Positions 6,152 to 13,173 of a stretch of 13,173 bases of DNA are shown here, piece after piece; the stretch's first letter is position 1, and every line of letters begins with the position of its first letter. The DNA comes from a virus (taxonomy: Duplodnaviria > Heunggongvirae > Uroviricota > Caudoviricetes). The notes under the pieces were generated by a model, which saw nothing but the letters and a program-made list of their open reading frames with translations, did not search any database and was not told the origin of the DNA. The translations under genes were made by a program, and so were the position numbers. Location: IMG/VR virus record IMGVR_UViG_638341082_000004. One strand, written 5' to 3'.

Positions 6152-6225
6152 GTTTTTCTCCTTAATTAAGGTTGAGCGAATACCTGCCATTTCTGGCATA
6201 AATTCAGTTTCGAATAGTCAATTAA

Positions 6226-6396
6226 TTAAAGTTCATGTGCCATCTGGTCTTTTTCGGCACAAGCTTCACTGCAATATTTTCTCGGTTCGTCTTTTGATAA
6301 AATCCCGTGCATGAAGTGAAGCATTCTTTCAATAGCTTTGCTTTCTTCAACGTCTTTTTTGCAAAGGTGGTAAGCACATTTTATTTTCTTAGTCAT
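6226..6396 (-). CDS. ydaE: Small Cys-rich protein YdaE (putative metal-binding)
   Basis: Hand-translated 56-aa ORF, absent from the ORF track (below cutoff): [56 protein letters not shown]. Start ATG overlaps the kilR stop (ATGA). Has CxxxxC and CxxxC pairs. Confidence 0.75.
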   Translation of the reverse strand: MTKKIKCAYHLCKKDVEESKAIERMLHFMHGILSKDEPRKYCSEACAEKDQMAHEL

Positions 6397-6617
6397 CACC
6401 ATGACTCCGCCTTTACAGGTAAACCATCACGACCGAGGAAGACTTTAATCATGCGGTCAGTAATGCATGTTTTTGTGGTCAGGTTACGAATATATAGTTT
6501 TCGCTTTTTAATATTGTTTGCCGAGGCAATATATGTCCGGCCTTCATGAAGAACATAATCGCCAGGAGTCACACACTGACGTGGTATTTCATCAGTTCCG
6601 AAGTGATGTGCAATCAT
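6396..6617 (-). CDS. kilR: Cell-division inhibitor KilR
   Basis: 73-aa product [46 protein letters not shown]... from the internal ATG at 6617 with SD GGAG upstream. Recognised as Rac KilR. Confidence 0.85.
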
Positions 6618-7058
6618 AATTATCTCCATTTTTACAAATGAACTTTGTTGATGCGGTGCCTGGTGCCTCCAGGTGACTGCAACCAGTTAACAATTACAGT
6701 CGGCTTTCCCACCCAAACCAATAAGGACTAACATGACTTTTAACTGTGCCACGTGCGCTTAGCCGCATTCACCGCATCACAAAATTCACTTTAAAAAGGG
6801 CGGACATCAGCCGAACTTCAAGAAAAAAACTGATGCCGCCAGGACTACACACAGCAATGTCGTTATTTACAACCGGAGGCGCACTCCCACCATTTAAATT
6901 TAACAGACAAGACCGACTCTTTATGGATATCGGAAATGCGCCTTCGTGTTGTGCCCGGTTTTATTTCACCACCTCCGGACTTCGGTGGTCTCGGCTATAC
7001 CCCTACAGCGAGAGCTTGTGTTAACATTTCAATACCCTTACAGTTGAGAGTTATTGAT

Positions 7059-7547
7059 ATGTTGGATGTATTTACTCCATTGTTGAAACTTTTTGCTAAC
7101 GAGCCACTCGAAAGACTTATGTATACGATTATCATTTTTGGTCTCACTCTCTGGCTGATACCGAAAGAGTTTACTGCCGCATTCAATGCTTATACTGAAA
7201 TACCTTGGCTCTTTCAGATTATCGTTTTTGCCTTTTCTTTCGTGGTCGCCATTTCCTTCTCAAGATTGCGAGCACATATTCAAAAGCATTATTCATTACT
7301 ACCAGAGCAACGAGTATTGCTTCGTTTATCTGAGAAAGAAATCGCTGTATTTAAAGATTTCCTTAAAACAGGAAATCTTATTATCACTTCTCCTTGCCGT
7401 AACCCGGTTATGAAAAAATTAGAACGGAAGGGCATCATTCAACATCAGAGTGATAGCGCAAACTGTTCTTATTATCTCGTCACCGAAAAATACTCCCATT
7501 TTATGAAGTTATTCTGGAACAGCAGGAGTAGACGTTTTAATCGTTAG
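7059..7547 (+). CDS. sieB: Superinfection exclusion protein B
   Basis: 162-aa product MLDVFTPLLKLFANEPLERLMYTIIIFGLTLWLIP... with predicted N-terminal membrane helices, starting at the internal ATG 7059 of track ORF 6936..7547. Confidence 0.85.
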   Translation: MLDVFTPLLKLFANEPLERLMYTIIIFGLTLWLIPKEFTAAFNAYTEIPWLFQIIVFAFSFVVAISFSRLRAHIQKHYSLLPEQRVLLRLSEKEIAVFKDFLKTGNLIITSPCRNPVMKKLERKGIIQHQSDSANCSYYLVTEKYSHFMKLFWNSRSRRFNR

Positions 7548-7699
7548 CTTACTGTGTGCTTCTCCAACCATCGGCGCGCACCAGTTTCGGTTTTAAATGT
7601 TTTGCTTTTGGTATACGTCATGGCAGTGAACGTTCCATCCTGGTTGGGGAACACGCCGCACACCAGGGATTCGTTGTTGCCGAGGTCGATTTTTTGCAT
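7544..7699 (-). CDS. ydaF: Small prophage protein YdaF
   Basis: Hand-translated 51-aa ORF not in the track: MQKIDLGNNESLVCGVFPNQDGTFTAMTYTKSKTFKTETGARRWLEKHTVS. Its 3' end overlaps the convergent sieB stop by 4 nt. Confidence 0.7.
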   Translation of the reverse strand: MQKIDLGNNESLVCGVFPNQDGTFTAMTYTKSKTFKTETGARRWLEKHTVS

Positions 7700-7709
7700 T
7701 TTGCGAATC

Positions 7710-7844
7710 TCACATCTTGTTGCTACGTATAGCGACTTCTGCCTGCCAGAGATCCCAGTCGTTGCTGCGTAAAGCCTGCACAGCCTGGTTGTAAGTGATA
7801 CCGCAACAATCCATCAAATACTGAACTACTTCGTAATGCACCAT
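7710..7844 (-). CDS. ydaG: Small prophage protein YdaG
   Basis: Hand-translated 44-aa ORF not in the track: MVHYEVVQYLMDCCGITYNQAVQALRSNDWDLWQAEVAIRSNKM. Confidence 0.7.
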   Translation of the reverse strand: MVHYEVVQYLMDCCGITYNQAVQALRSNDWDLWQAEVAIRSNKM

Positions 7845-7989
7845 CTTATCTATCCCCTTAACGCCGGGTGGCGGAACTAACTGCTGCACTGCAAAATTTG
7901 AATCCCGCCGTCATGTTCATACGCCTCGGGCTGGCTACTTAACCCCTGACCACTGCCTGGTAACTCGAAGTATTGCCCGGCGTTCTGTG

Positions 7990-8060
7990 GGGCGGGGTGG
8001 GTTGGTAGGTATATAATGTACTTTGTGTTCATCATTGTAAAGTACTTTAAGTACATTTTA
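7990..8060 (-). promoter_or_regulatory. Candidate leftward early promoter/operator (PL/OL-like) upstream of ydaG
   Basis: AT-rich segment with palindrome GTACTTTAAGTAC (8042-8054) and ATGTACT motifs. On the minus strand TTACAA-17bp-ATTATA resembles -35/-10. Inference only. Confidence 0.35.
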
Positions 8061-8132
8061 TGTATAAAAAAAATGAGACGGGATAAAGTGAAGCACAAAC
8101 CCGGAGGGGGACGCTACCGGATTTATGCTGGT

Positions 8133-8552
8133 TTAAGAGGCTTTTTGTTTTTTCTTTCGTGCTAACTCTTCGTAAATTGCATTGTACTTCTGTTTTTTCT
8201 CCTCAAGAGTTTTTAAAAGTTCATCTGTCTCACTGTCAGGGAGCTCGTCCAGAAGGTCAATGATGATTTTTTGTCTTGGATTTAACTCCTGATAGAAACG
8301 TATCTGTCCACTTTCTTCTGTATCCTCTCCCAAAAGATAGGTTGGTGTTGTTCCAATGAGTGTTGCTAATTCCCTTAATTTCTCTCGGCGAGGAATTGTT
8401 TCACCATTAAACCATTTGCTAACCGCTTTTGGTGTTAATTTCATTCGACGGGCAATTTCTGCCTGCCTTCCATGTTGTTCATAACCAGCGTTTTCACAGG
8501 CTAGCGCAAGCCTACTGGCGAACTCTTTACGCGCTTTATCTTCATGAACCAT
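8133..8552 (-). CDS. racR: Rac prophage repressor RacR (CI-like HTH regulator)
   Basis: 139-aa ORF MVHEDKARKEFASRLALACENAGYEQHGRQAEIARRMKLTPKAVSKWFNGETIPRREKL... with an HTH (Xre-type) N-terminal domain, divergent from ydaS. Confidence 0.85.
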   Translation of the reverse strand: MVHEDKARKEFASRLALACENAGYEQHGRQAEIARRMKLTPKAVSKWFNGETIPRREKLRELATLIGTTPTYLLGEDTEESGQIRFYQELNPRQKIIIDLLDELPDSETDELLKTLEEKKQKYNAIYEELARKKKQKAS

Positions 8553-8631
8553 AAGTTCAATGATATTCGCTCTTGAATGTACTGTCAGTTCTGTTATAGC
8601 ATGTACTCAAAGTTCACATTGTGAGGGTGAT
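8553..8631. promoter_or_regulatory. Divergent racR/ydaS promoter-operator region (OR-like)
   Basis: 79-bp gap between divergent starts. TTGAAT (8573-8578) then TATAGC 16 bp later for ydaS; CTGACA-17bp-TATCAT on the minus strand for racR. ATGTACT occurs twice (8577-8583, 8601-8607). Confidence 0.5.
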
Positions 8632-8886
8632 ATGAACCAGAAAACACTTGAAGATGTAATCAAAACTGTTCGCGTTTCTGTTGTGGCCGACGTTTGTGGT
8701 GTCAGCCAAAGAGCAATCTACAAATGGATGGATAACGGAAAATTGCCTCGCACAGAATATACCGGCGAAACAAATTACGCTGAAAAAATCGCTCATGCAT
8801 CAAACGGATTATTTTCTGCCGATGCAATTTTAACTATTGGCAGAAATAAAACTACTACGAAAAAGCTGATGGGAGTTGATTCATGA
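8632..8886 (+). CDS. ydaS: Cro-like HTH protein YdaS
   Basis: 84-aa product MNQKTLEDVIKTVRVSVVADVCGVSQRAIYKWMDNGKLP... from ATG 8632 with SD GAGGG 6 nt upstream. The longer track start at 8560 would leave only 7 bp to the divergent racR. Confidence 0.8.
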   Translation: MNQKTLEDVIKTVRVSVVADVCGVSQRAIYKWMDNGKLPRTEYTGETNYAEKIAHASNGLFSADAILTIGRNKTTTKKLMGVDS

Positions 8887-9305
8887 AAATCAAGCATGAG
8901 CACATCGAATCAGTGTTGTTAGCCCTGGCAGCCGAAAAAGGGCAGGCGTGGGTCGCTAACGCAATTACTGAAGAATATCTGCGCCAGGGGGGCGGCGAAT
9001 TGCCCCTGGTACCAGGCAAGGACTGGAACAATCAGCAGAATATCTATCATCGTTGGTTGAAAGGTGAAACGAATGCGCAAAGGGAAAAAATTCAGAAACT
9101 GATCCCTGCGGTTCTGGCAATTCTTCCTCGCGAGCTGCGTCACCGACTCTGCATCTTCGATACCCTGGAACGCCGTGCATTACTGGCGGCACAGGATGCA
9201 CTGAGTACGGCAATTGATGCGCATGATGATGCAGTCCAGGCCGTTTACCGTAAAGCACATTTCAGCGGCGGCGGTTCTCCTAGCGATTCTGTCGTAGTGC
9301 ATTGA
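8883..9305 (+). CDS. ydaT: Rac prophage protein YdaT (CII-like/toxic when derepressed)
   Basis: 140-aa ORF MKIKHEHIESVLLALAAEKGQAWVANAITEEYLRQGG... with start overlapping the ydaS stop (ATGA). Confidence 0.85.
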   Translation: MKIKHEHIESVLLALAAEKGQAWVANAITEEYLRQGGGELPLVPGKDWNNQQNIYHRWLKGETNAQREKIQKLIPAVLAILPRELRHRLCIFDTLERRALLAAQDALSTAIDAHDDAVQAVYRKAHFSGGGSPSDSVVVH

Positions 9306-9318
9306 TTGAAATTAATCG

Positions 9319-9340
9319 TACCGAACTGTTTTGTTCGGTA
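9319..9340. other. Perfect 8-bp-arm hairpin between ydaT and ydaU
   Basis: TACCGAAC-tgtttt-GTTCGGTA read directly; no downstream U-tract. Confidence 0.4.
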
Positions 9341-9350
9341 TCAGTTAAAT

Positions 9351-9369
9351 GTAACGCTGCGAGCGTTAC
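9351..9369. repeat. Iteron-like palindrome GTAACGCT-gcg-AGCGTTAC (copy 1)
   Basis: Perfect 8-bp arms with 3-bp spacer, 14 bp upstream of the ydaU start. Confidence 0.55.
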
Positions 9370-9382
9370 AAGGTGAAAACAA

Positions 9383-10171
9383 ATGGCTTCAAACTGGATA
9401 AAGCTCGAAGTTATTACGCCGGATAAGCCGGAAATATTCAGGCTTGCTGAGATTCTGAATATTGATCCAGATGCCGCATTAGGGAAAGTCATTCGCTTCT
9501 GGGCATGGGCGGATCAACAAATGATAGACGGTAACGCAGAGTGTAACGCTCGCGGCGTTACAAAAAGTGCAATAGATCGCATCACTTTTATGGCTGGTTT
9601 TGCTGATGCGTTAATTCAGGTTGGATGGCTGGTCGAAACTAATGGTGTGTTGTCGCTTCCTAACTTTGAGCGCCATAACGGGAAAAGCTCTAAAAAACGG
9701 GCGGTTACAAACGAGAGAGTAACAAAAATACGAGAACTGAAACGAAAAGGTAACGCTGCCAGCGTTACAAAAACGGATCAAAAAGCGTTACCAGAGGAAG
9801 AGAAAGAGGAAGATATAAATACTTATCTCCCCCTAAATCCCCCTCGCCAAAAACGAGCGTCTAAAAAATTCGAACCGGAGGCTATCGAGCTGCCTGACTG
9901 GTTGCCGGAAACACTCTGGCATGAGTGGGTTCAGTTCAGGCAGGCATTGCGAAAACCGATTCGAACGGAGCAGGGCGCTAACGGGGCGATACGGGAGCTG
10001 GAAAAATTCCGCCAGCAGGGTTTTTCACCTGAGCAGGTGATTCGACACAGCATCGCCAACGAATACCAGGGCTTGTTCGCGCCGAAAGGTGTTCGACCTG
10101 AGACGTTACTCCGACAGGTTAACACCGTCTCGTTACCGGATAGTGCGATCCCGCCAGGCTTCAGGGGGTAA
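9383..10171 (+). CDS. ydaU: Putative replication initiation protein YdaU (lambda O-like position)
   Basis: 262-aa ORF MASNWIKLEVITPDKPEIFRLAEILNIDPDAALGKVIRFWAWADQQ... with SD AGGTG 7 nt upstream. It precedes the DnaC-like ydaV and contains iteron-like repeats. Confidence 0.85.
   Translation: MASNWIKLEVITPDKPEIFRLAEILNIDPDAALGKVIRFWAWADQQMIDGNAECNARGVTKSAIDRITFMAGFADALIQVGWLVETNGVLSLPNFERHNGKSSKKRAVTNERVTKIRELKRKGNAASVTKTDQKALPEEEKEEDINTYLPLNPPRQKRASKKFEPEAIELPDWLPETLWHEWVQFRQALRKPIRTEQGANGAIRELEKFRQQGFSPEQVIRHSIANEYQGLFAPKGVRPETLLRQVNTVSLPDSAIPPGFRG
9543..9561. repeat. Iteron-like palindrome GTAACGCT-cgc-GGCGTTAC (copy 2)
   Basis: Same motif as 9351-9369 with one arm mismatch, inside ydaU. 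Confidence 0.5.
9750..9768. repeat. Iteron-like palindrome GTAACGCT-gcc-AGCGTTAC (copy 3)
   Basis: Perfect arms, inside ydaU. Preceded by half-sites GGTTACAAA (9702-9710) and GTAACAAAAA (9719-9728) in an A-rich stretch. Confidence 0.5.
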
Positions 10172-10177
10172 CTGACC

Positions 10178-10924
10178 ATGAAAAATATTGCGACAGGCGA
10201 CGTTCTTGAACGTATCCGCAGACTGGCCCCGTCACATGTAACCGCGCCATTCAAGACGGTAGCGGAGTGGCGCGAGTGGCAACTTTCCGAAGGCCAGAAA
10301 CGTTGTGAGGAGATCAACCGTCAGAATCGTCAGTTGCGGGTGGAAAAAATTCTGAATCGCTCTGGCATCCAGCCATTGCACCGCAAATGCTCGTTTTCGA
10401 ATTACCAGGTGCAGAACGAAGGGCAGCGATACGCGTTGAGTCAGGCGAAATCCATCGCTGATGAACTGATGACCGGGTGTACAAATTTTGCGTTCAGCGG
10501 AAAACCTGGTACCGGGAAGAATCACTTAGCGGCAGCTATCGGGAATCGCCTGCTGAAAGACGGTCAGACAGTGATTGTGGTTACCGTGGCTGATGTTATG
10601 AGTGCCCTCCACGCCAGCTATGACGACGGGCAGTCAGGCGAAAAATTTTTGCGGGAACTGTGCGAAGTGGATCTGCTGGTTCTTGATGAAATTGGCATTC
10701 AGCGCGAGACGAAAAACGAGCAGGTGGTACTGCACCAGATTATTGATCGACGGACAGCGTCGATGCGTAGCGTGGGAATGCTGACAAACCTGAACTATGA
10801 GGCCATGAAAACATTGCTCGGCGAGCGGATTATGGATCGCATGACCATGAACGGCGGGCGATGGGTGAATTTTAACTGGGAGAGCTGGCGTCCGAATGTC
10901 GTCCAGCCAGGAATTGCGAAGTAA
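10178..10924 (+). CDS. ydaV: DnaC/IstB-like AAA+ helicase loader YdaV (lambda P analogue)
   Basis: 248-aa ORF with Walker A ([15 protein letters not shown]) and Walker B (DLLVLDEIG). SD AGGGGG upstream; begins 6 nt after the ydaU stop. Confidence 0.88.
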
Positions 10925-10946
10925 TTTTTACCGGGAGAAAAATTTA

Positions 10947-11708
10947 ATGGAGACTGTTTTTGACGCACTGAAAGCAATGGGGAAAGCTACGTCGGTAGAA
11001 CTGGCTGCGCGACTTGATATCAGTCGTGAAGAAGTGCTGAACGAGCTGTGGGAACTGAAAAAGGCTGGCTTCGTTGATAAAAGCGTATACACCTGGCGCG
11101 TGGCTGATAACAACGTTCAGCAGGAACAGCCAGAGCAGGCAGAACTGCCGGAAGAAACCACCACGGCAACAGTCGCAAAAATTTCGGAGTGCGATTTAAC
11201 TGCGACGATTGAACAACGTGGCCCACAAACGGCGGATGAACTGGCTACGTTTTTCGGCATCACATCACGCAAAGTGGCTTCAACGCTGGCAATGGCAATC
11301 AATAAAGGTCGTCTGATTCGCGTTAATCAGAACGGTAAATTTCGTTACTGCATGCCGGGCGATAATTTACCAGCAGAGCCGAAAGCTGCATCGGTAGCGG
11401 AAACTGATGGTAAAGCCTTTCCTCAGCCAGCCGGTGTTGCGTTACCAGTACAGGAAGCGGCAACACAGGAAGATATTAAAACAGAAACTGTGGCGGACAT
11501 TGTGCAGTCGCTGCCATCGTTTACTGAAACGCAAGCGGATGACCTGGTTTTACCATCGCTGCATATGGCAAACCGCGAACTGCGTCGGGCGAAAAATCAT
11601 GTCCAGAAGTGGGAGCGAGTCTGCGCCGCGCTGCGGGAGCTGAACAAGCACCGGGATATTGTCCGACAGATTGTCGATTCCTCCAGTCGTATTGTGTCGG
11701 AAAAGTGA
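10947..11708 (+). CDS. ydaW: YdaW-like protein with two tandem winged-helix DNA-binding repeats
   Basis: Track ORF 10896..11708; probable start is ATG 10947 ([45 protein letters not shown]...). A second similar repeat follows ([33 protein letters not shown]). Assigned by synteny and partial recall. Confidence 0.65.
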
Positions 11709-11723
11709 TTGCCGGAGGCGCTT

Positions 11724-12146
11724 ATGGCAAAAGTTTTTACACAGGAAGAGCGGGAAAAAATTAAAGGGCAGGTTGTTGAGCTAGTACGCCGGAGTGGACG
11801 TGAGACGTTACGGCAACTGGAAGTCAAGACAGATGCGACAAGATATCTGATGAGCGTTCTCGCAAGAGAGCTGGTTGCCAGCGGCGATGTATACAACTCT
11901 GGTTACGGGTTATTCCCGTCTGAACAGGCGCGTAAGGACTGGCAAAATGCCCGTAAAAAGCTCTCAAGGGCAAAGCTGAAGAAACCATCTGCGGTTGATC
12001 CGGACCTTATCTGGTCATTACCTGACGGAGAAATACGTCGCTACGACAGGCGTCAGAACATAATCTGTCGCGAGTGCCGGAAGAGTGAAGTTATGCAGCG
12101 CATATTGTCGTTTTATCAGGGTGATGTTCGGTATTTATTGAAGTGA
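11724..12146 (+). CDS. Hypothetical prophage protein (unknown function)
   Basis: Track ORF 11709..12146 (TTG); probable start is ATG 11724 (MAKVFTQEEREKIKGQVVELVRR...), 140 aa. Composition matches the phage module. Not recognised. Confidence 0.55.
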   Translation: MAKVFTQEEREKIKGQVVELVRRSGRETLRQLEVKTDATRYLMSVLARELVASGDVYNSGYGLFPSEQARKDWQNARKKLSRAKLKKPSAVDPDLIWSLPDGEIRRYDRRQNIICRECRKSEVMQRILSFYQGDVRYLLK

Positions 12147-12214
12147 CGAGATTAAAGTGCATTAGTTCAGATGCAAATTGACATTTTGTGGCACAGGGTA
12201 GAGCTAGCGTGGTT

Positions 12215-12246
12215 GTCCGCTTTGTGCCAGAGGCGGACGTTTTGGG
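12215..12246 (+). terminator. Candidate intrinsic terminator after the replication-module operon
   Basis: GTCCGC-tttgtgccagag-GCGGAC followed by GTTTTGGGTAT. Short stem and modest T-tract, so weak. Confidence 0.3.
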
Positions 12247-12276
12247 TATATTAACCTTACACTTCATGGATACTAT

Positions 12277-12305
12277 TCAACATCTCTTTTAAATTATTGT
12301 AAAAT
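12277..12305 (+). promoter_or_regulatory. Candidate sigma70 promoter for the AT-rich cargo gene
   Basis: TCAACA (12277-12282), 17-bp spacer, TAAAAT (12300-12305) preceded by TG. The 10-mer ATTGTAAAAT recurs at 12296-12305 and 12340-12349. Confidence 0.3.
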
Positions 12306-12534
12306 CCGACGCATTCATTGATTTACGGAAACTTGGCGTATTGTAAAATTGAACATCAAGATTTACACTATGAAGGTTAGGATAGTTTGTTAAAAGCATA
12401 ATGCATGAGGCCTGAATCAGTTTATTAAAGAAGTTTTGTATGAATTAAGTGGGCTAAAAATATAATTTTGAAGTATTTATGACTACATGATTCATATTCA
12501 ATTATTTGAGTTAAATATTTTTCATGGAGAAATT

Positions 12535-13173
12535 ATGGACGTTAGAATATTCTCATTAGAATCTCAGAAGAGTAAAATTTATGATAGAAGAACTAGAAAA
12601 TATTTTGAAGAGGTTTATAAGAGCTATGCTAATGGTTGTTACCGTTCTGCTACCGTGATGCTATGGTCAGTAGTTGTATGTGATATTATTTTTAAGCTCC
12701 AAGAACTGCGAGATGTTCATAACGATGCTGTTGCGGAAAAGATATTATTAGAAATTGAAGCACTACAAAACGATGATCCTTACTCTCCTAAATGGGAAAA
12801 AGAGCTTATTAAAAGAGTTTTTGAAAGAACTCAATTATTAGACACTGCTTCAAACCATAAAGTTTTACTTATTCAAAAACACAGGCATTTATCTGCCCAT
12901 CCCGTAATAAGTGACGAAGATACGTTATTCGAGCCAACACAGGAAATGATTAGAAGTGACATTAGGAATAGTATAGAAGTAATATTAAGCAAGCCGCCAT
13001 TTATGTCTCAAAAAATACTTTCCACATTTGTTGCAGATCTAGAAAAGGTAAAGGACCTATTCCCTTCCGATAACGCGCTAAAAAAATACTTAGATGTTAA
13101 ATATTTCAAATCTTTAAACAAGGAAGTATTAGTTAAGATATTCAAGGGTTGTGGAAGTTTTCGTTTAGATCTG
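12535..13173 (+). CDS. 5' part of an unrecognised AT-rich cargo ORF (at least 213 codons, no stop in window); possible HEPN-like R-x4-H protein
   Basis: ATG 12535 with SD GGAGA 5 nt upstream; open to the last base. Hand translation: [60 protein letters not shown]...[19 protein letters not shown]...[10 protein letters not shown]. Markedly AT-rich by eye; not in the ORF track because it has no stop. Confidence 0.6.

Follow-up and report, generated by a model that had tools for sequence, protein, structure and literature searches.

A putative replication origin inside the initiator gene of a Rac-like prophage

Results

Palindromes and half-sites in and beside the initiator gene

The DNA considered here is a stretch of 13,173 nucleotides (IMG/VR record IMGVR_UViG_638341082_000004; referred to below as the window), which represents a Rac-like prophage with ttcA as the insertion site. 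The element in question is a set of palindromes and half-sites that lie in and just upstream of a predicted replication initiator gene (rep), together with a polypurine tract in the same gene. We argue below that these sites and the tract are probably an origin of replication located within the initiator gene. The features that carry the argument are listed by position in the window.

9351-9369: site U (copy 1), a perfect palindrome, GTAACGC-TGCGA-GCGTTAC, in the intergenic DNA between ydaT and rep
9383-10171, plus strand: the initiator gene (rep), encoding 262 amino acids
9531-9537: extra left half-site of site A, GTAACGC, 12 bp upstream of the left arm of copy 2
9543-9561: site A (copy 2), a palindrome, GTAACGC-TCGCG-GCGTTAC, inside the rep open reading frame (ORF), codons 54-60
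9703-9711: a degenerate right-type half-site, GGTTACAAA, for which the close relatives L045, L051, L053, L056 and L062 have a perfect CGTTACAAA
9719-9726: a degenerate left-type half-site, GTAACAAA, with one mismatch to GTAACG; it is without a clear counterpart in relatives, and its membership is uncertain
9750-9768: core of site B (copy 3), a perfect palindrome, GTAACGC-TGCCA-GCGTTAC, in the segment that codes for the linker, residues 123-129
9785-9792: terminal right half-site, GCGTTACC, 23 bp (two periods) past the right arm of site B and abutting the polypurine tract
9793-9827, plus strand: polypurine tract, AGAGGAAGAGAAAGAGGAAGA (9793-9813) followed by ATATAAATACTTATC, with the purines on the coding strand, detected by TRF
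10178-10924, plus strand: ydaV, encoding a DnaC/IstB-like AAA+ helicase-loader homologue and starting 7 nt after the initiator gene

The first-pass annotation of the window had reported three copies of a 19-bp palindrome. When up to three mismatches were allowed, it was found that GTAACGCTNNNAGCGTTAC matched the window only at 9351-9369 (no mismatch), 9543-9561 (one mismatch) and 9750-9768 (no mismatch), and the start-to-start distances of 192 and 207 bp agreed with the spacing given. The chance expectation for this motif was 0.04, and none of 200 shuffles attained three copies. With the definition that is conserved in the family, GTAACGC-N5-GCGTTAC, all three copies were perfect and none was present elsewhere in the window (0.01 expected). 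Similarly, 8 of the 10 GCGTTAC 7-mers of the 13-kb window were located within 9351-9791, where the expectation for the whole window was 1.25. Two dyads are in the ORF, and the third is 14 nt upstream of it. In a 37.8-kb Rac-like phage genome, the palindrome was found at these three places only, no other repeat family with at least three copies was present in 6200-13173, and TRF detected no tandem array besides the polypurine tract.

The segment 9700-9730 is A-rich, as had been proposed (AT skew 0.58, GC 0.43). Of the two extra GTTACAAA half-sites that had been placed there, one was confirmed (9704-9711), whereas the other is in the opposite orientation (GTAACAAA, 9719-9726). Two exact 7-mer half-sites, GTAACGC at 9531-9537 and GCGTTAC at 9785-9791, had been overlooked.

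Site U ends 1 nt before the Shine-Dalgarno sequence AAGGTG (9370-9375), and the ATG is 14 nt away. When the upstream DNA of nine enterobacterial loci was aligned, the arms of site U were the sole invariant block in otherwise diverged sequence. The site is confined to an enterobacterial subclade, and in the comparative set described next there were 0.32 half-sites per locus at -50 to 0.

Selection on the sites at the DNA level

The initiator protein has an N-terminal domain (N-domain, 9383-9796) and a C-terminal domain (C-domain, 9797-10171). A tblastn search with the N-domain identified homologues in 59 phage records (from E. coli (Escherichia coli), Klebsiella, Salmonella, Xanthomonas, Pseudomonas, Ralstonia and Vibrio), and pattern scans yielded 159 further loci in viral contigs and genomes, including those of Verrucomicrobia and Planctomycetes. 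Removal of sequences with 90% or greater nucleotide identity resulted in a set of 85 non-redundant loci.

A motif search across relatives, which was one of the checks suggested in the first-pass annotation, was positive: in 63 of the 85 loci, the counterpart of copy 2, at +147 or +159 relative to the ATG, contains TAACG-N-CGTTA. A count that is free of position gave a similar value, in that 65 of the 85 loci contain at least four TAACG or CGTTA cores between nucleotides 40 and 480 of the gene. The half-site cores form two peaks, with 2.8 per locus at +100 to +200 and 4.3 per locus at +250 to +450, on a background of about 0.06 per 50 bp; the second array of the family is in the linker, at about +350. 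Information values of 2.0 bits are partly circular because the clade was chosen by the motif, and the counts from the unselected 85 loci are the reliable ones.

Copies 2 and 3 share a reading frame, in which they encode CNARGVTK and GNAASVTK, and the repeats could in principle be a by-product of an internal peptide repeat (G-N-A-x-x-V-T) or of chance. However, it was found that synonymous third positions are fixed far beyond codon usage. At the Gly codon from which the left arm takes its first two bases, 72 of 82 cases use GGT, although GGT accounts for 19% of the Gly codons elsewhere in these genes; for Val in the right arm, GTT is used in 67 of 73, compared to 28% elsewhere; and the Asn codon of the arm is AAC in 67 of 67. 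Other invariant Gly or Val columns have mixed codons. Furthermore, in the NGT and NGC codons that flank the arms the amino acid varies (Cys/Gly/Ser and Ser/Gly/Arg/Thr, respectively) while the second and third codon bases are kept. Copy 1 is non-coding, and the half-site at 9785-9791 is read in another frame (KALPE). We reject a peptide repeat on the codon analysis and chance on the shuffles and the expectation of 0.01-0.04; the two together retain hardly any probability.

The sites are thus under selection at the DNA level, beyond coding needs, and it is close to certain that they are a functional element of the DNA. Among the neighbours of the sites, the N-domain alone is constant: the upstream regulators, the C-domains and the downstream genes (DnaC-like, DnaB-like, P-like or none) vary.

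The subclade of the window has gained an additional half-site. Positions 9531-9542 (codons 51-54, ECNA) are a 12-nt insertion relative to most of the family that is peculiar to this subclade and duplicates the left half-site of site A; the offset of the half-site at 9531-9537, 12 bp, is the family-wide left-left spacing. This insertion shows how arrays grow, with each new half-site bringing four more residues into a protein loop.

Arrangement of the half-sites

The linker cluster has a convergent order, in which left-type copies (L) are followed by right-type copies (R); the commonest arrangements are LLRR (19 loci), LRR (11) and LLLRR (10). Start-to-start spacing of neighbouring left copies is 12 bp in 46 of 55 intervals, right copies follow one another at 11-12 bp in 45 of 54 intervals, the other 9 having the 23-bp spacing that is present in the window, and the spacing across the dyad is 12 bp in 62 of 63. 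Most loci have more half-sites of one type than of the other, and the spacers show no base pairing. The window fits this grammar, site A being L-12-L-12-R and site B L-12-R-23-R. The grammar looks like that of protein-binding half-site arrays on one face of the helix, rather than what a structural hairpin would need.

The distance between the dyads of sites A and B clusters at 198, 207-210, 219-221 and 228-231 bp (50 of 62 loci), or about 19, 20, 21 and 22 turns of 10.45 bp. The clustering is a hint that the sites are phased on one face of the helix for looping. However, coding in steps of 3 nt and common descent both confound it, and we do not rely on it.

An explanation in terms of structure is that the palindromes act as RNA or single-stranded DNA hairpins, in the role of stability or attenuation signals, RNase III sites, antisense terminators or primosome signals. 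Each dyad does fold to a stable hairpin of 8-9 bp (-7.6 to -8.9 kcal/mol as DNA, z -3.7 to -4.7), the half-site classes described below differ compensatorily in both arms, and a consensus scan gave weak minus-strand terminator-like sites at 9768-9750 and 9340-9319. However, the number of terminator-like sites was not above that of shuffles (4 vs. 2.2 +/- 1.4), none was on the plus strand, and an Rfam search of 8000-11000 gave no relevant match at E <=1, the only one being a spurious tmRNA fragment (8919-8979). The arm sequence is identical in all copies of a genome and is conserved across phyla, neither of which is needed for structure alone, and lone half-sites are the rule. Because left and right numbers are unequal and spacers are unpaired, we favor arrays of protein-binding sites and consider a hairpin function improbable. 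A hairpin or cruciform that is recognised by the initiator may be a variant of the origin explanation.

A separate, perfect 8-bp hairpin, TACCGAAC-TGTTTT-GTTCGGTA, is present at 9319-9340 between ydaT and the initiator gene and is terminator-like on the minus strand. Read on that strand, it recalls the terminator of the lambda oop RNA, which lies between cII and O. This hairpin is not conserved: 'phage Rac' MN652886 (L003), whose module is 97% identical, lacks it.

A polypurine tract follows the last half-site

Directly past the last half-site, positions 9797-9826 are the lowest-GC 30-mer of 9300-10200 (GC 0.27, 77% purine). A purine run of at least 12 nt was found at this place in 63 of the 85 loci, with a median of 23 nt and a GC content of 0.39, as opposed to 0.55 for the genes; the longest purine run elsewhere in the genes has a median of 8 nt. 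In the family, the run is 12-33 nt long and fused to the last half-site, a string beginning with CGTTACC(A/T)(A/G)AGA is found family-wide, and the tract is present in every half-site class.

A count of Arg codons within purine runs would be circular and was replaced by a count anchored on the peptide EEKRRE. In the 26 loci that encode this peptide, 72 of 72 Arg codons are AGA, compared to 23 of 439 (5%) elsewhere in those genes. Therefore, the purine run is kept at the DNA level, even in GC-rich hosts. The tract at 9793-9827 is a candidate DNA-unwinding element, at which the strands may open.

A more speculative role, to which we attach little likelihood, is that the rep mRNA forms a stable purine-RNA/pyrimidine-DNA hybrid (R-loop) at the tract and that the initiator array stalls or positions this hybrid, which would then open or prime the origin. 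In that reading, what is invariant throughout the family is the purine run rather than the half-site sequence. If true, the 'transcriptional activation' of lambdoid origins, for long without an explanation, would exist here in a form defined by sequence and comparable to the polypurine-tract primer of retroviruses.

Half-site classes follow the N-domain clades

Sister clades have the same layout but other half-sites, which are changed in all copies together. Epsilon15, phiPSA1 and eight genomes have GTCCGC/GCGGAC, L154 and L157 have GTCACG/CGTGAC, Ralstonia phage Raharianne has GTAGAC/GTCTAC and a Vibrio phage has TGTCAC/GTGACA. In the epsilon15 clade, the first array is at +64 rather than +147. 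The five half-site classes, including the TAACG class of the window, follow the N-domain clades. It is a surprise that initiators ranging from those of Enterobacteria to those of Planctomycetes and Verrucomicrobia retain TAACG; the iterons of lambdoid phages, in contrast, differ between close relatives.

In an alignment of the 85 N-domains, the residues that set the TAACG class apart include T109 (9707-9709) and V113 (9719-9721), which are one helical turn apart on a conserved basic helix (RA-x-T-xx-R-V), near-invariant in the TAACG class and different in every other class. These residues are candidate specificity determinants, which we offer as a lead only.

A further switch is found in the Rac prophage of strain K-12, where a DUF1376 N-domain is joined to the same C-domain and ydaV, and where (A/G)ATGTTCAA repeats are present at the equivalent place (locus L002: direct copies at 2327, 2360 and 2372, an inverted copy at 2390 and distal copies at 2083 and 2170). 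K-12 becomes homologous to the window again from the AT-rich segment and CCCCCTAAATCCCCC onward. Thus, to judge from the sequences, the N-domain and the repeats appear to have been swapped as one unit. The N-half and repeats of the O genes of lambda, 434, 21 and phi80 are likewise exchanged as a unit.

Other candidate binding proteins

The sites could instead be operators of another prophage regulator, such as the YdaT (CII-like), Cro-like, CI-like or YdaW protein, or of a host factor. YdaT and YdaW had been named as possible binders in the first-pass annotation, and the invariance of TAACG across phyla could point to a conserved host protein. However, the sites are kept in phages that lack both YdaT and YdaW, and they persist through an exchange of the immunity region, as a comparison of the window with L003 shows. 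Initiator clades that share host groups also differ in their half-site (Salmonella epsilon15 vs. E. coli), and a scan of 9200-10300 gave no DnaA-box-like 9-mer. Operators of a protein other than the initiator are therefore very improbable.

YdaT and YdaW were rejected because the palindromes are found together with unrelated regulators and because the YdaT operator is located elsewhere (8876-8893). The YdaT operator is TTGATT-N6-AATCAA (PMC9986795). An exact copy (TTGATTCATGAAAATCAA) is present at 8876-8893, where the Cro-like gene ends and ydaT begins; in prophage CP-933P, the operator has been reported at the same position, the junction of the Cro-like gene and ydaT (PMC9986795). In K-12, the YdaT sites are in the racR-ydaS region and at the start of ydaT (PMC11879457). 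When up to two mismatches were allowed, the operator had three matches in the window, which is not above chance (28 of 200 shuffles). One weaker operator-like sequence, TTGATTGAAATTAATCGT (two mismatches, 9302-9319), overlaps the ydaT stop codon just upstream of the putative origin region.

The initiator is a mosaic protein

The first-pass annotation had called the initiator gene ydaU. This is correct for the C-terminal 124 amino acids (139-262), which were 81% identical to K-12 YdaU in a BLASTP comparison, with the last approximately 85 amino acids identical, but not for the N-terminal 138 amino acids, which had no similarity. The DUF1376 domain (PF07120), which K-12 YdaU matches at E 2.7e-26, was not found in the N-domain of the window. 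The 262-amino acid protein had no Pfam family at E <=0.01, and neither of its halves had one at E <=10, including Phage_rep_O; sequence searches of Pfam, NCBIfam and the Protein Data Bank (PDB) with the N-domain gave no family and no solved relative. The record annotation is 'hypothetical protein'.

In contrast, the protein matched the PHROGs family phrog_2509, 'replication initiation protein', over its whole length (E 4.7e-88, residues 1-262 to profile positions 1-277 of 277), and the N-domain alone matched it at E 5.3e-68. Counted as representatives of 50%-identity clusters, the N-domain family has 6,596 members at E <=1e-3 and 4,124 at E <=1e-10.

An AlphaFold model of the N-domain (mean predicted local distance difference test score, pLDDT, of 71) has helices at 61-68 and 73-80, a beta-hairpin at 84-91 and then the conserved basic helix at 103-122. 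Judged from this model, the N-domain, which belongs to the phrog_2509 family, may be a DNA-binding domain of the winged-helix type. Site A codes for a low-confidence loop (residues 52-56, pLDDT <50), and site B lies within a disordered linker (residues 123-138, pLDDT <50); sites A and B are therefore in parts of the protein that are able to absorb constraints imposed on the DNA.

The C-terminal tail (10115-10171, the last 19 residues, ending in VNTVSLPDSAIPPGFRG) is common to K-12 YdaU and a Klebsiella phage homologue. It has a weak match to the C terminus of the primosomal protein DnaT (NCBIfam NF002770, E 0.0034, far below the cut-off), and the epsilon15 record itself notes an HHpred match to DnaT.

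Genomic context and prevalence of the module

The gene order of the window is intR, xisR, ralR, recT, recE, racC, kilR, sieB and then the CI-like repressor gene. The genes that surround the initiator gene and ydaV are the following.

8133-8552, minus strand: CI-like repressor gene
8560-8886: Cro-like gene
8883-9305: ydaT
Downstream of ydaV: genes for DUF1627 and DUF977 proteins

The ydaV product, annotated as such in the record, matched Pfam IstB_IS21 (E 3.9e-20) and Bac_DnaA (E 7.5e-9), and YdaV is the presumed partner of the initiator C-domain. An inverted repeat of 92% complementarity, ATATAATGTACTT (8011-8023) and AAGTACATTTTAT (8049-8061), with 25 nt between the two arms, is located in AT-rich DNA past the 3' end of the CI-like repressor gene and may serve the leftward region as an operator or a terminator.

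The segment 8500-11000 was 100% identical to E. coli CFSAN064036, not K-12. The complete phage record vB_EcoS-673R7 (ON470616.1) contains the same module; its initiator is labelled 'DNA replication protein O', which is the annotator's name only. At least 677 of 5,426 complete E. coli genomes contain 80% or more of the 2.5-kb module. Among the E. coli matches H1 to H15, the slot from ydaT to ydaV is a mosaic hot spot with flanks that are 95-97% identical. Its annotations in E. coli are of at least four kinds: hypothetical protein (the family of the window), YdaU/DUF1376, HTH-domain (helix-turn-helix) protein and 'phage O protein family'.

Discussion

The comparative evidence strongly supports the core idea of the first-pass annotation, namely that repeated initiator-binding sites would lie in the initiator gene beside an easily opened tract, as in lambda ori and gene O. 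Judged from sequence data, the palindromes are probably bound by the initiator encoded at 9383-10171 and, with the tract at 9793-9827, probably constitute an origin of the prophage inside the initiator gene. A lambda-like in-gene origin is supported by the conservation at the DNA level, the footprint-like block at site U, the co-variation of half-sites with N-domain clades and the conserved polypurine tract.

The mechanism that we infer begins with the N-domain, in which a putative winged helix and the conserved basic helix would read half-sites of 5-7 bp, (G)TAACG(C). Dimers of the initiator would occupy the three dyads, with extra protomers on the flanking half-sites at 12 or 23 bp. Protein contacts may then bridge sites U, A and B, which are about 200 bp apart, into a complex similar to the lambda 'O-some', and this complex could destabilise the polypurine/AT tract immediately 3' of the last half-site. 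The C-domain, which is common to K-12 YdaU, would bring YdaV, the DnaC-like loader, with host DnaB. Site U adjoins the ribosome-binding site, and binding there may also allow the initiator to restrain its own expression.

Several points weigh against this interpretation. The dyads are 192 and 207 bp apart, and site A is within the part of the gene that codes for the N-domain; the iterons of lambda are packed within about 100 bp. The site-B array of the window is thin, with one dyad, one exact half-site and degenerate ones, and the low-GC tract is short in a region that is only moderately AT-rich (GC 0.42-0.45). Because the sites lie in the gene of the N-domain itself, their co-occurrence with it is partly unavoidable, and the class switches are few independent events that are confounded with phylogeny. 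In the literature searched, there were no binding, footprint or origin-activity data for any member of the family. Lastly, 6 of the 85 loci (L100, L120, L128, L143, L150 and L158) have no half-site with at least four copies and no recognisable array. L128 has a single GTCACGC dyad, L100 is cut at a contig end and L120 codes for a shortened protein of 122 amino acids. In some members of the family, the origin may therefore be degenerate or of a different type.

Alternatively, the binding of the initiator to these sites could serve autoregulation only, with the sites as operators or roadblocks that hold down the expression of rep and ydaV, and the true origin would be elsewhere in the prophage. 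Such an explanation would account for the position of site U against the ribosome-binding site and for the dispersed dyads, and in iteron plasmids dyad-symmetric Rep sites do serve as autorepression operators. However, the most conserved part is the site-B array fused to the codon-maintained polypurine/low-GC tract, for which an operator has no obvious need, and most of the family lacks site U, which would be the best candidate for an operator. A consensus scan of 8400-10300 predicted no sigma-70-like promoter near any site, and the region 6200-13173 offers no alternative repeat family of three or more copies. We consider a purely regulatory function unlikely, although less so than the other alternatives for these sites that were discussed above, and retain the in-gene origin as the probable explanation.

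The arrangement of initiator-binding repeats inside the initiator gene is classic and already known. In lambda, the central part of gene O contains both the iterons of ori, which are inverted repeats, and an AT-rich tract (PMC7466680). The system described here resembles that of lambda (and of 434, 21, phi80 and the Stx-phage variants) in that the origin would be in the initiator gene, with inverted-repeat units and an adjoining, strand-asymmetric opening tract, and in that the initiator is modular, with an N-half that is exchanged together with the repeats and a C-half that is matched to the neighbouring helicase-loader gene. It differs in that the protein family is unrelated (no Phage_rep_O match) and the dyads are in two or three clusters about 200 bp apart, in comparison to the four adjacent 19-mers of lambda. 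Further differences from lambda are the 11-12-bp period of the half-sites in convergent blocks, the (GAAGA)n-type polypurine run as the opening tract and the retention of one recognition sequence across several phyla. Unlike the iteron plasmids (pPS10, R6K, F and P1), the window is without tandem 17-22-bp direct iterons or DnaA boxes, its sites are in coding sequence and the loader is phage-encoded.

The nearest relatives of the N-domain are the members of phrog_2509 and phrog_9474 (the epsilon15 gene product and those of TL-2011b, Xanthomonas CP2, Pseudomonas PAN70 and phiPSA1), which are its direct family and have the same in-gene layout of sites, whereas their C-terminal domains and partner genes differ. 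The ydaU-ydaV region of K-12 Rac has the prophage type, insertion site and gene order in common with the window (ttcA/intR...recET...ydaT-rep-ydaV) and a ydaV gene that is about 96% identical, but it has the DUF1376 N-domain of YdaU and the (A/G)ATGTTCAA repeats instead of GTAACGC dyads. Reports that mention it in passing credit Rac with an active origin of its own, named oriJ (PMC3945230; Potrykus et al. 2000, cited in PMC11014345). The suggestion that the window might contain the Rac-type origin does not hold: because only the C-terminal 124 amino acids match K-12 YdaU and the N-domain is without DUF1376, this is an alternative replication module and not the K-12 Rac origin.

A paper on the replication region (Eru) of Stx phages does not mention iterons, origins or ydaU, and in the literature on DUF1376 and iterons the only comparator found was the O protein of lambda and Stx phages. 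The origin of this Pfam-less family, the half-site grammar, the two- or three-cluster layout, the codon-maintained polypurine tract and the cross-phylum recognition sequence appear to be undescribed in the literature searched.

If the interpretation is true, it would provide a precise map of an origin, consisting of three dyads, flanking half-sites and an unwinding tract, for a module that is present in hundreds of E. coli and Shigella genomes, and the origin model would extend to a Pfam-less initiator family of approximately 6,600 cluster representatives in several phyla. The half-site grammar and the natural variants (TAACG, GTCCGC, GTCACG, GTAGAC and TGTCAC) would be a ready system for studies of the recognition of DNA by initiators. 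The 'ydaU' genes of Rac-like prophages are mosaics in which the DNA-binding half and the putative origin are swapped together, which bears on their annotation. This mosaicism also bears on which Rac-like prophages still replicate after excision, and on the use of orthogonal phage-derived replicons.

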